Shown here piece by piece: positions 583-6,410 of a stretch of DNA of 6,410 nt. The stretch's first letter is position 1. Each line of letters starts with the position of its first letter. Source of the stretch: a virus (taxonomy: Duplodnaviria; Heunggongvirae; Uroviricota; Caudoviricetes); IMG/VR virus record IMGVR_UViG_2671180892_000009, positions 1-6,410 of that record. The stretch is one strand, 5' to 3'. Both the position numbers and the translations under genes were made by a program. The notes below the pieces were generated by a model. That model ran no database searches. It saw nothing but the letters and a program-made list of their open reading frames with translations, and was not told where the DNA came from.

Positions 583-914
583 TATGCAAGCCTCACAATA
601 TAGTTAAATGCAATGTTTTTGACGGTGTTTTCCGCGTTACCCGCAGCGTTAACGGTGATGGTGTGTCCGTGTGAACCAATACTGAAAGAATGGGCATGAG
701 CACCGATAACAACCGGATGCTGGTGCGCACCAATACCAACTGTATGCGCATGTGCACCGGCACTCACGGCTGTACCGGACAATGAGTGACTGTGGCTGCC
801 CTGACTGTCCGTTTTCGATAAATAAGCAATACCCTGTGTGTTGGTTCCTTTAACTGTGGATAAACTTCCTGTATCAATGCTTAAATCAATGACAAGGTCA
901 GCAATCTGGTCCAA
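582..914 (-). pseudogene. Deletion-fusion remnant: about 16 residues resembling the tape-measure (gpH) N-terminus joined in frame to a His-box side-tail-fibre C-terminal tip domain, 110 codons. The only possible start is TTG at 912-914.
   Basis: The N-terminus [16 protein letters not shown] resembles lambda gpH MAEPVGDLVVDLSLD. The rest (SHSHS, GAHAHT, GAHQHP, GAHAHS, GSHGHT ... [11 protein letters not shown]) has the repeated GxHxH boxes typical of T4 gp37 / lambda Stf fibre tips. There is no internal Met; an in-frame stop lies two codons upstream of the TTG; a strong Shine-Dalgarno (GGGAGGAA) precedes the TTG. The open frame is intact, so it may still be translated. Confidence 0.65.
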
Positions 915-1227
915 ATCTCATTCCTCCCGATATACCTTCCCCCAGATGCATCAGCTCTTCATCCGTGCGTTCAGGGATCACCCTGTCATCCGTAACCAGA
1001 CTGAAATCATCCGCCGGAATACGTTCACCGGACACCATCTGAACCATCAGCGACTTCAGTGTGGAAATCTGTGCATCCAGCCAGATATCCCCGAAACTCT
1101 GCTTCCGGAAGAAATCCCCCCATTCGCCCAGTTCTGACGCTGACATTTCTGATAACATCCGCCGCCAGTCTGCCCGCCGGAACTCACGGGCAAGCTGCAT
1201 CACAAACTGCATCTCCCGCGTCAGGAC
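898..1227 (-). CDS. gpT-like frame, the -1 frame relative to G, expected to be expressed only as a G-T fusion by programmed -1 frameshifting. The frame is open from 1251; the first ATG is at 1210-1212.
   Basis: Position and frame match the lambda G/T arrangement: the frame is -1 relative to G, it opens 9 codons before the G stop, and it ends just inside the start of the gpH-like ORF. The protein sequence was not matched to lambda gpT from memory, so the call rests on synteny. Confidence 0.55.
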
Positions 1228-1610
1228 TTTTCCGGTGTCAGGGGAACCTGTTCACCGTTCTGAACATCACCGGTGGAGACCGGCATACCACTCAGGGATA
1301 AAACCAGACTGCCCCCGTCGCCAAGCGCGTCATAAGACCAGGTGTTTTTTACATCCTCATTCAGCGCATCCACATCCTGTGACGGGTCCGTATTCCACAT
1401 TGACCGGGAAACCAGCCAGGCATTGATATCCATCCCCATACGCAGAAATTCAATCTGACGATCCGCCACCGGCATGGCATCATCCAGGGCGTCAAACTCA
1501 GCTGTCCGTTTCTGGACAAACGCCAGATACTCCACCCGCTGAAGTCCGGATAATTCTGTCAGTACCACAGACTGATTACCGTAGTTAAATGTGTCCTGTT
1601 TCAGAAACAT
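1221..1610 (-). CDS. G: Tail assembly chaperone gpG-like, 129 aa from the ATG at 1608-1610.
   Basis: The N-terminus MFLKQDTFNYGNQSVVLTELSGLQRVEYLA resembles lambda gpG MFLKTESFEHNGVTVTLSELSALQRIEHLA. A strong Shine-Dalgarno (GGAGGGG) lies 4 nt upstream of the ATG. It sits between V and the T frame, as in lambda. Confidence 0.8.
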   Translation of the reverse strand: MFLKQDTFNYGNQSVVLTELSGLQRVEYLAFVQKRTAEFDALDDAMPVADRQIEFLRMGMDINAWLVSRSMWNTDPSQDVDALNEDVKNTWSYDALGDGGSLVLSLSGMPVSTGDVQNGEQVPLTPEKS

Positions 1611-1619
1611 GTCCCCTCC

Positions 1620-1648
1620 GTAAACAAAAAACCCCGGCATACCGGGGT
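1620..1648 (-). terminator. Rho-independent terminator-like hairpin between V and G. On the minus-strand RNA it reads ACCCCGG-UAUG-CCGGGGU followed by UUUUUUGUUU.
   Basis: Seen in sequence: a 7-bp GC-rich stem (plus 1631-1637 and 1642-1648) with a 4-nt loop, immediately followed on the minus strand by a U-tract. It lies in the 56-nt V-G intergenic region just upstream of the G ribosome-binding site. Confidence 0.55.
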
Positions 1649-1666: not shown

Positions 1667-2407
1667 TTAATCACCATTAACGGTAATACCGGCCACAGCA
1701 ACCTGCGCACCACCCGCAGTCATCCCCACAATCGAGGTGCTGCCCGCTTTCACACCTTTCACCGTGGCCACCATGCCACTCAGCGTAACCGTGGCGATAT
1801 CAGGAGATGATGACGCCACGCTCACCGTTTTATCAGAAGCATCTTCCGGTACTGTGCTGAATGTCAGCGTCGTCGTTGCCCCCACTCTGACACTGGCGGA
1901 AACCGGCATTACTGTCAGCCCGGTCACCCCCACAATTTCAGTCCCCTCCTCAGCCAGATACGGACGCCCCACACCGCTGATTTTAACCGTACGGGTCATC
2001 ACATCTTTTGACGTAATGGTTTTACCCAGCGAACTCAGCCAGCCGCGGAACACATCAACGGTACCGTTAGGGTATTTAATGCGGAATGCACGAACTTCAC
2101 CGGAATCAAACAACTGAATCAGTTTTTTCTGTCCGCTGTCACCCGGACGCCAGGCCAGCGTCGCGGATGTATCACCAACAGATTTTTGCCCCTGAGTTGT
2201 CGTTTTCCAGTCAGCATTTTCATCATCGAGATAATCGTCATCTTCCGCATCTGCAGTCATTTCCCCCGGCTGCAGATCCTTCACCATCGCGAGGCGCAGC
2301 CAGTCCGTATCTGACAAAGGATTCGCAAATGCGTCGCCCTTGCCGGTATACATCCAGAACGTCGTCCCCGCCCCTTTCATTTTTTCAAGTGGATTCGGTG
2401 TCGTCAT
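1667..2407 (-). CDS. V: Major tail (tube) protein gpV-like, 246 aa, with a C-terminal Ig-like (Big_2-type) domain. Start at the ATG at 2405-2407 rather than the upstream start given in the ORF track.
   Basis: MTTPNPLEKMKGAGTTFWMYTGKGDAFANPLSDTDW... aligns along its length with lambda gpV ([36 protein letters not shown]...). Same length as lambda gpV (246 aa). Shine-Dalgarno AAGGGGTGGG upstream of the ATG. Confidence 0.9.
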   Translation of the reverse strand: MTTPNPLEKMKGAGTTFWMYTGKGDAFANPLSDTDWLRLAMVKDLQPGEMTADAEDDDYLDDENADWKTTTQGQKSVGDTSATLAWRPGDSGQKKLIQLFDSGEVRAFRIKYPNGTVDVFRGWLSSLGKTITSKDVMTRTVKISGVGRPYLAEEGTEIVGVTGLTVMPVSASVRVGATTTLTFSTVPEDASDKTVSVASSSPDIATVTLSGMVATVKGVKAGSTSIVGMTAGGAQVAVAGITVNGD

Positions 2408-2417
2408 TTCCCACCCC

Positions 2418-3026
2418 TTAATTTGTATATGTGATTTGATACGTGATTTCCGCCATCGCCCATGTTGCCATATCGTTATCACGCTGATAGTTAAATCCCC
2501 GTGGGATCATGGTATCGATAAGGCCGTAAAGCGCCGGAATATCCTCCAGTGCCGGGTAAATAATGTTGTCCATCCACGTATCCAGATCAGAATCCGGTGC
2601 CTGTGCGCGGATAAAGACGGCGACATGCAGAACTGCCAGCCAGTCATCCTCATCCGTCATTTTTCCGGTGTACTGTGCATCACTCAGCCACACCGCCACG
2701 GCAGGCAGCTCCTGCGCATCAATAAAGGCAGGAAGGCCGTCAAACAGGACGGTCTTCTCCCCGCACGTCGTTTTCAGGCGCGACAATACGGCCTGACGAA
2801 TTTGTGTGTGTCGGTTCATCGGGTCAGATATAACCTCAGTTGGTGTTTCAGGGCATACACCCAGCGCACTTTCCAGCTCTTCAATATACTGACGCAGTTC
2901 ACCAATTGTCGCCCGCGAATACTGAACCTGACGCCCGTCCTTGCTGACGGAAACCACAGCACGTCCGATCATCAGTTCATGTAACGCCCGGCGGGCATCG
3001 CATAGCATTTCATGCGTATAAATCAT
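2418..3026 (-). CDS. In-frame fusion ORF: gpW-like head-tail joining protein (about residues 1-57), a roughly 13-residue junction, then a complete gpU-like tail terminator starting at an internal Met at 2817-2819. Start at the ATG at 3024-3026; a GTG at 3027-3029 is also in frame.
   Basis: N-terminal part: ARRALHELMIGRAVVSVSKDGRQVQYSRATIGELRQYIEELE versus lambda gpW [42 protein letters not shown]. C-terminal part: MNRHTQIRQAVL...FDGLPAFIDAQELPAVAVWLSDAQYTG...IPALYGLIDTM...ITYQITY versus lambda gpU MKHTELRAAVL...FDGRPAVFDEADFPAVAVYLTGAEYTG...IPALSDLITSM...LTYVITY. Shine-Dalgarno GGAGGA 7 nt upstream of the ATG. Confidence 0.8.
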   Translation of the reverse strand: MIYTHEMLCDARRALHELMIGRAVVSVSKDGRQVQYSRATIGELRQYIEELESALGVCPETPTEVISDPMNRHTQIRQAVLSRLKTTCGEKTVLFDGLPAFIDAQELPAVAVWLSDAQYTGKMTDEDDWLAVLHVAVFIRAQAPDSDLDTWMDNIIYPALEDIPALYGLIDTMIPRGFNYQRDNDMATWAMAEITYQITYTN

Positions 3027-3029
3027 CAC

Positions 3030-6119: not shown

Positions 6120-6410
6120 TGATCCTACCCACGTAATATGGACACAGGCCTAAGCGAGGTTCTGGTTTTCAAATTGTTCCGGACTGAGGCCGCCACACCA
6201 ACTGTGCCGCCGCCACCGATTGTAATCACATTCGATATAATTAAACACCGTTGCCCGCATTATTTCCCGGCTGATAAAGTGTTCTCCATGGATACATTCC
6301 ACTTTCAGCGAATGAAAGAAGCTTTCCACGCAGGCATTATCGTAGCAGCAACCTTTTGCGCTCATACTTCCACGCAGATTATGCCGTTTCTGTTGCGCCT
6401 GATAATCTGC
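6120..6410 (-). mobile_element. IS3 (IS3 family) insertion sequence, right-end portion, with the terminal inverted repeat beginning TGATCCTACCCACGTAATATGGACACAGGCC at 6120. The element continues beyond the window edge.
   Basis: The terminus starting with TGATCC matches the IS3 end sequence as I remember it, and the adjacent ORF encodes the C-terminus of the IS3 orfB transposase. Confidence 0.9.
6150..6410 (-). CDS. insF: IS3 transposase orfB (InsF-like), C-terminal 86 residues of the DDE catalytic domain. 5'-partial: the N-terminus lies beyond the window.
   Basis: The frame is open to the window edge. The translation [86 protein letters not shown] matches the IS3 InsF C-terminus with two substitutions relative to the copy I remember (L to Q, K to Q). 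Confidence 0.9.

Follow-up and report, generated by a model that had tools for sequence, protein, structure and literature searches.

The closest described counterpart of the locus analysed here is the junction of genes G and T in phage lambda, which is a proven site of ribosomal -1 frameshifting (Levin 1993, cited in PMC5009743) and where the T domain is functional only within the G-T fusion protein (Xu 2013/2014, as summarised in PMC5009743). The lambda site reads GCG GGA AAG TGT TCG ACG GTG AGC TGA and the product of its -1 frame, from the heptamer onward, is GKVFDGELSFALKLARE.

The heptamer GGAAAAG is also known as a G-T slip site already and is annotated in two phage records. In phi80 (FN582354) a misc_feature, 'slippery sequence for -1 translational frameshift', covers exactly GGAAAAG and is accompanied by a joined gpG-T CDS; in phage LLS (PQ299149) a joined CDS goes with a 'minus-one programmed translational frameshift site GGAAAAG'. 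Each of the two annotations seems to be a prediction; we found no experiment behind either of them, and the literature on GGAAAAG frameshifting and on phi80 frameshifting yielded no experimental test of GGAAAAG at a G-T junction. Among the motifs on which annotated tail chaperone genes slip, the PRFect paper includes one of two plus four bases ('twofour'); it also discusses the re-pairing of tRNA-Glu from GAA to GGA via G.U (PMC10885494). The tetramer A_AAG is the most shift-prone in Escherichia coli, and N_NGA_AAG sites related to the one described below are in use in Bacillus subtilis cdd and in IS1222 (PMC5009743; PMC4066793).

The G-T overlap

The window, by which we mean the whole 6,410-nt stretch of DNA analysed here, carries on its minus strand a G/T gene pair with the following features.

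1221..1610, minus strand: gene G, tail assembly chaperone, 129 aa, Pfam PF06894 (Phage_TAC_2)
1251-898, minus strand: -1 frame ORF with the gpT domain, PF06223 (Minor tail protein T, Phage_tail_T), E 1.5e-13
1252..1254, minus strand: UGA that closes the -1 (T) frame on its 5' side, the 5' limit of the shift window
1227..1233, minus strand: putative slip site G_GAA_AAG; GAA would be held by the P-site tRNA-Glu and AAG by the A-site tRNA-Lys
898..1227, minus strand: T segment read after a -1 shift, from GTC 1227-1225 to TGA 900-898, 109 aa
join(1610..1227, 1227..898), minus strand: predicted G-T fusion, 237 aa
1210..1212, minus strand: in-frame ATG of the T frame, taken as the T start by automatic annotation; a GGGAG ends 1 nt before it

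Gene G starts with the ATG at 1610, which has GGAGGGG in front of it, and stops with the TGA at 1223-1221; its homologues begin MFLK. Its product matches PF06894 with an E value of 3.6e-38 and is 34% identical to lambda G (BLASTP, E 2e-18). The T frame product is 38% identical to lambda T (BLASTP, E 2e-23). A reading of this DNA made earlier from the sequence alone had proposed a lambda-type G/T pair that requires a -1 shift, and had left it to homology searches whether the ORF at 898-1212 belongs to the gpT family. The two Pfam matches and the overlap bear out the pair, the ORF is related to gpT, and re-reading the sequence returned the same coordinates and frames, including the UGA at 1254-1252 and the G stop at 1223-1221.

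On the minus strand the 3' end of the G frame reads ...GTT CCC CTG ACA CCG GAA AAG TCC TGA. The -1 frame runs from the TGA at 1254-1252 as ACA GGT TCC CCT GAC ACC GGA AAA GTC CTG ACG CGG GAG ATG CAG and stays open until 898. Since the T frame opens only at this UGA, T can be joined to G solely via a shift within 1251-1224, an overlap of 28 nt. GGAAAAG (1233-1227) in the phase G_GAA_AAG is the sole slip-prone motif within the overlap and becomes GGA AAA G in the -1 frame; its A_AAG is in zero-frame phase (GAA AAG at 1232-1227). U_CCC_CUG, considered as an alternative slip site in the overlap, was rejected, re-pairing being impossible there and conservation absent. A shift on GGAAAAG would give the trans-frame junction ...TPEK joined to VLTREMQF..., which the sequence-only reading predicted correctly.

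That reading had also described the slip site as non-canonical and possibly weaker than that of lambda. The heptamer does fail the canonical X_XXY_YYZ pattern, its first triplet being G-G-A, but it is not degenerate: it is a full heptamer, one transition from that of lambda and at the homologous position. With 1.07 occurrences expected by chance, the single GGAAAAG of the window is by itself no proof of a shift. What exceeds chance, as judged from sequence comparison, is its phase, its lambda-homologous position and its invariance in diverged relatives.

A deleted lambdoid prophage

The surroundings of the G-T overlap are those of a prophage remnant. G and T sit between V and H, in lambda-type order and frames.

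5484-4918, minus strand: small terminase
4949-3030, minus strand: large terminase
3029-2418, minus strand: 203-aa ORF, gpW N-terminus and complete gpU (Pfam gpW at residues 7-58, Phage_tail_U at 72-201)
1667..2407, minus strand: major tail protein V, upstream of G (Pfam PF16461, E 7e-68, plus Big_2)
1631..1648, minus strand: strong terminator-like hairpin between V and G, 7-bp stem with 6 GC pairs and a T-run
871..914, minus strand: first ~15 codons of the tape measure gene H, matching the R1 prophage to 871 (H is annotated in L001)
914-582, minus strand: ORF made of the H start and a tail-fibre C-terminus, with a Phage_fiber repeat in the remainder
582-1, minus strand: tail fibre assembly gene

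In the 203-aa ORF (2418-3029) the N-terminal 58 residues of the head-tail joining protein W are followed by the whole tail terminator U, with a junction near 2865. This fusion marks an in-frame deletion of the genes for portal, protease, decoration, capsid, FI, FII and Z. In the ORF at 582-914 the start of H is joined, near 871, to a His-rich tail-fibre C-terminus, and this marks a second deletion, which runs from H into the side tail fibre gene and has taken most of the latter. The segment in between (871-2865) is the only part of the window that is collinear with an intact E. coli R1 prophage, at 99.85% identity; that prophage has portal, protease, capsid, Z, U, V, G, T, H, M, L, K, I and J. 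Over 781 nt of G-T DNA the two are 100% identical. The window is thus a prophage remnant that has lost the head genes and most tail genes, and because of these deletions its G-T product has no role in tail assembly here.

The hairpin between V and G has a counterpart that is labelled 'terminator' in phages Ayreon and mEp460; judged by its sequence, it would lower the expression of G, G-T and H relative to V. At the other end of the window, a C-terminal fragment of an IS3-family transposase (6150-6365, minus strand) adjoins the small terminase gene, and E. coli genome matches beyond 5700 carry an annotated IS3-like element. The entire window was not found in any complete E. coli genome, the best match covering 55% of it.

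The site is homologous to that of lambda

The window and lambda have in common PF06894, PF06223 and the gene order V-G-T-H, the -1 direction of the shift and the position of the slip site relative to the T domain. The A-site codon is alike (AAG to AAA) and the -1 frame encodes Gly-Lys-Val in both. Across the 19 aligned representatives, which stand for each lineage that could be collected, the heptamer lies 13 codons upstream of the conserved LARE...DW motif of T in every case (19/19) and without gaps. At this homologous position G_GAA_AAG is found in the window, cdtI, mEp460, Salmonella and Citrobacter prophages, Superficieibacter, phi80, mEp043 and a Klebsiella phage, G_GGA_AAG in lambda and PhiR5_1, A_AAA_AAG in VT1-Sakai, C_CCA_AAA in Vibrio phage K242, and G_GCA_AAA followed by UAG in an Ewingella-like group (L096-L099 / L191).

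The window differs from lambda by one transition in the third base of the heptamer, which is A instead of G. As a consequence of this base, the P-site codon is GAA (Glu) and would re-pair with GGA at the cost of a middle mismatch, whereas lambda moves from GGA (Gly) to GGG. The G stop lies one codon past the site in the window but five codons past it in lambda, and a strongly predicted stem-loop 8 nt 3' of the site is present in the lambda and phi80 types and not in the window lineage. Compared with phi80 and LLS, the heptamer, its phase, its position and the trans-frame logic are alike. However, phi80 belongs to another G/T lineage (tblastn gives ~45% identity between its T and that of the window), the codon ahead of the site is GCG in phi80 and LLS and CCG in the window, and in phi80 and LLS the stop is five codons downstream of the site, with a predicted downstream stem-loop of z -3.5 to -4.6.

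GGAAAAG is conserved as a nucleotide sequence

The G-T region of the window is ~75% identical to that of the isolated phages cdtI, mEp460, Ayreon, Tritos, HannyBb and others. CCGGAAAAGTCCTGA is present in 79/79 IMG/VR loci retrieved with window G (65-100% protein identity), while the codons just upstream vary. Salmonella relatives, whose G is 50-55% identical to that of the window, retain CCGGAAAAG(T/C)CCTGA, and GGAAAAG is found in 80/80 loci retrieved with phi80 G. In the Salmonella relatives the -1 frame opens just 16 nt ahead of the G stop. A very distant E-K representative reads TCA TTG GAA AAG TAA at the DNA level, and here the -1 frame opens 13 nt upstream; together these two openings confine the shift to the heptamer.

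G proteins of the window, Salmonella and phi80 types served as queries for the loci that we pooled. Wherever the T motif gave a reference position, the locus had one of two heptamers: GGAAAAG in 185 loci, which represent 70 distinct 108-nt contexts, or GGCAAAA in five, all from one distant sub-lineage. The 70 contexts span three deep lineages (window/cdtI/mEp460; Salmonella/Citrobacter prophages; phi80/mEp043/Klebsiella), and all seven positions of the heptamer are invariant in 70/70 of them. Third-codon positions upstream of the heptamer (-2, -5 and -8) show two to four bases each. G1 and A4 of the heptamer are also third-codon positions, yet they do not vary. The codon that supplies G1 changes between CCG (Pro), GCG (Ala), GTG (Val) and TTG (Leu) and retains its final G each time. 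Since G1 and A4 are fixed while neighbouring third positions and the amino acid of the G1 codon vary, the alignments indicate that selection acts on the nucleotides of the heptamer rather than on the G protein. There is no circularity here, since the loci were picked by G-protein homology and not by the heptamer. In the -1 frame, the protein is conserved from the heptamer on, ahead of any ATG, in all lineages compared.

The E-K ending in the G family

A profile search of 1.84 billion cluster representatives gave 72 full-length G-family proteins. The C-terminus is formed by [A/P/L/S]-E-K plus 0-6 residues in 48 of the 72, against five with a lambda-like G-K ending and four with K-K, figures that are biased toward GGAAAAG/E-K by a profile built from E-K sequences and by queries of the GGAAAAG type. 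Among the 48, the number of residues after E-K is 0 (4 cases), 1 (32), 5 (11) or 6 (1). Despite the sampling bias, E-K appears, on these sequences, to be the majority type in the G family and not an exception. A scan of genome contigs returned 10 loci; a scan of viral contigs with lambda G found near-identical copies only, and a scan with P0194 gave no matches. One locus of a distant lineage (L281, 1190-1202) carries a natural variant, A_GAA_AAG-UAA, in which G1 is replaced by A. Three natural G-T fusion proteins (P0045, P0064, P0088) were considered as evidence on the site and set aside as uninformative, being internal deletions.

Stimulators and expected efficiency

In vivo, tetramer motifs without a stimulator shift at 0.147% against a background of 0.112%, and A_AAG reaches 5.6% only when given a strong pseudoknot (Sharma, PMC4066793). 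With reconstituted E. coli components, frameshifting on G GGA AAG was heavy under limiting EF-G, whereas AUG GAA AAG served as the 'less slippery' control and gave mainly the 0-frame product at all EF-G concentrations (Peng 2019, PMC6924986).

Downstream structure is not significant in the window (fold z -0.78), nor is there a significant downstream fold in the window/cdtI/Salmonella lineage (z -1.5 to +1.6, consensus -9.9 kcal/mol). In the lambda and phi80 types a stem-loop is predicted from 8 nt after the heptamer, with z -2.2 to -4.6 over 80 nt, a consensus energy of -28.4 kcal/mol and one covarying pair (A-U to G-C).

L083:524-594: predicted stem-loop, lambda
L192:615-685: predicted stem-loop, phi80
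The same predicted stem-loop in relatives of both

It overlaps the codons for LARE...DWRAM and may therefore be a by-product of coding.

Shine-Dalgarno (SD)-like stimulators were sought by scoring pairing against the 3' end of 16S rRNA. The best upstream anti-SD pairing in the window is -3.2 kcal/mol, an unremarkable value at the 61% quantile of the gene. Only a Salmonella sub-clade (L084, L094) has a GGAGG 10 nt upstream of GGAAAAG, which at -9.5 kcal/mol lies in the top 4% of its own gene and has the spacing of the stimulatory SD of dnaX. An upstream SD-like stimulator was rejected as a general feature: it is only weak in cdtI-type loci, phi80-type loci lack it, and that of the window does not stand out. 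The acidic G tail, moreover, yields GAG-G through coding alone.

In the window lineage, then, either little shifting is enough or there is a signal that has gone unrecognised. A G:GT ratio different from that of lambda, which the sequence-only reading expected of a weaker site, is plausible, because G GAA AAG is far less slippery in vitro than G GGA AAG. It is a rather improbable extension that most lambda-family G-T junctions use the near-non-slippery G_GAA_AAG and that, if G-T amounts to ~3-4% as in lambda, a stimulator has gone unrecognised; candidates would be the YCC-UGA sequence conserved on the 3' side of the site, the stop codon that almost adjoins it and the nascent acidic G tail.

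Proposed mechanism and alternatives

From the observed anatomy, homology, positional equivalence and conservation we infer the occurrence of the shift, its efficiency and the tRNAs that move. On this sequence evidence the site is very probably a conserved -1 programmed ribosomal frameshift site of the lambda-family tail chaperone pair. Most ribosomes would translate G up to its own stop, while a minority would slip by -1 on G_GAA_AAG (1233-1227) and read on in the T frame, which would yield the G-T fusion. The main driver is likely to be the single E. coli tRNA-Lys, which would shift from AAG to the better-matched AAA at the A_AAG motif. In the P site, tRNA-Glu would re-pair from GAA to GGA, keeping the first and third pairs and tolerating a G.U-type mismatch (G opposite U35) in the middle of the codon. 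The invariance of G1 suggests that this re-pairing matters; the existence of L281, with A at G1, and of the G_GCA_AAA group suggests that it is perhaps not strictly required.

The sites of cdd (A_CGA_AAG) and IS1222 (G_CGA_AAG) resemble that of the window in having a weakly or non-slippery P-site codon followed by A_AAG, and in a shift that hinges on a single tRNA-Lys favouring AAA. They differ from it in two respects. Stimulators at A_AAG-type sites are an SD-like sequence in cdd and a downstream structure in the IS3-based reporters of Sharma, and none was found in the window; the P-site tRNA of the window can still form two Watson-Crick pairs and one G.U in the -1 frame.

How many tRNAs move is the point on which an alternative has some weight. 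It is possible, albeit less likely, that tRNA-Lys slips alone on A_AAG, with G1 and G2 as just context. In lineages with a stop immediately after AAG, this tRNA would then slip from the P site, the A site being occupied by the stop. NNA_AAG frameshifting is documented (PMC5009743), the stop is 0 or 1 codon past E-K in 36 of the 48 E-K representatives, and both A_GAA_AAG in L281 and G_GCA_AAA then UAG in the Ewingella type, where the P-site tRNA is unable to re-pair, suggest a tRNA-Lys that slips alone, possibly aided by the adjacent stop. For the main lineages the invariant G1, in 70/70 contexts and at a synonymous position, speaks against it, and on the window mRNA a ribosome with tRNA-Lys in its P site would need to advance by one more codon before the stop entered its A site. 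A slip of the polymerase rather than the ribosome deserves next to no credence. One A fewer in the A4 run would indeed bring T in frame, so that the mRNA would encode G-T directly. However, the known cases of slippage by bacterial RNA polymerase require about 7 consecutive A or T or more, and four A are far too short; moreover the homologous lambda site has only three A and is nevertheless a proven ribosomal shift (Levin 1993, via PMC5009743).

Two further readings dispense with the shift. T could be made as a free protein from ATG 1212, directly or by re-initiation after the G stop, since this ATG lies 8 nt after the UGA of G with GGGAG in front of it, is kept within the window/cdtI lineage and is the T start of automatic annotation. 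We regard this as very unlikely, and ATG 1212 is probably not a genuine T start: the 1-nt gap from GGGAG is below normal ribosome binding site spacing, the Salmonella (GCT GAA ATT), Citrobacter, phi80 and lambda lineages have no ATG at this position but keep the overlap and the heptamer, the T-frame residues between heptamer and ATG are conserved as protein, and a free T is at odds with the dependence of the lambda T domain on G-T (Xu 2013/2014, via PMC5009743). Alternatively, as the sequence-only reading had allowed, frameshifting has been lost or is negligible in the window lineage, GGAAAAG being a decayed lambda site with an unexpressed T that is tolerated. The poor slipperiness of G GAA AAG in vitro (PMC6924986), a stimulator that was not detected in the window lineage and the defective state of the window prophage itself would all fit, but the comparison of G-T junctions in related intact phages makes such a loss hard to credit. 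A decayed site should drift, and the heptamer is invariant in 70 contexts from lineages with 35-55% protein identity that include plaque-forming phages and intact prophages; it is kept in phi80, cdtI, mEp460, mEp043, Ayreon, Tritos and LLS, and an intact prophage has G-T DNA identical to that of the window. The T frame is open and conserved in all lineages compared, and most G-family representatives appear to end in E-K, contrary to decay. Programmed -1 frameshifting on G_GAA_AAG remains our preferred reading.

Implications for annotation and for the G family

G and T are listed separately in the records of cdtI, Ayreon, Tritos, mEp460, mEp043 and a second phi80 (JX871397), and in the PGAP annotation of the R1 prophage. 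The G-T region of the cdtI/window type is present in 1,843 of 5,426 complete E. coli genomes, with G and T separate in the 30 records listed. The G-T fusion thus appears to be systematically absent from E. coli annotation. Pipelines and phage submissions miss it, plausibly through expecting XXXYYYZ.

What had been overlooked from the sequence alone is that GGAAAAG is a full heptamer at the lambda-homologous position, that it is the apparent majority type, that it is annotated in phi80 and LLS, and that the window prophage is a deletion remnant. As far as sequence can tell, the feature is an ordinary lambda-family G/G-T frameshift site, in its commonest sequence form, within a defective prophage. 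A site that looks non-canonical beside lambda is the normal state of the G family, and as such has little discovery value. The poor slipperiness of this heptamer in vitro, set against its strict conservation in phages, does pose a small and testable question, namely how much G-T a lambdoid tail needs.
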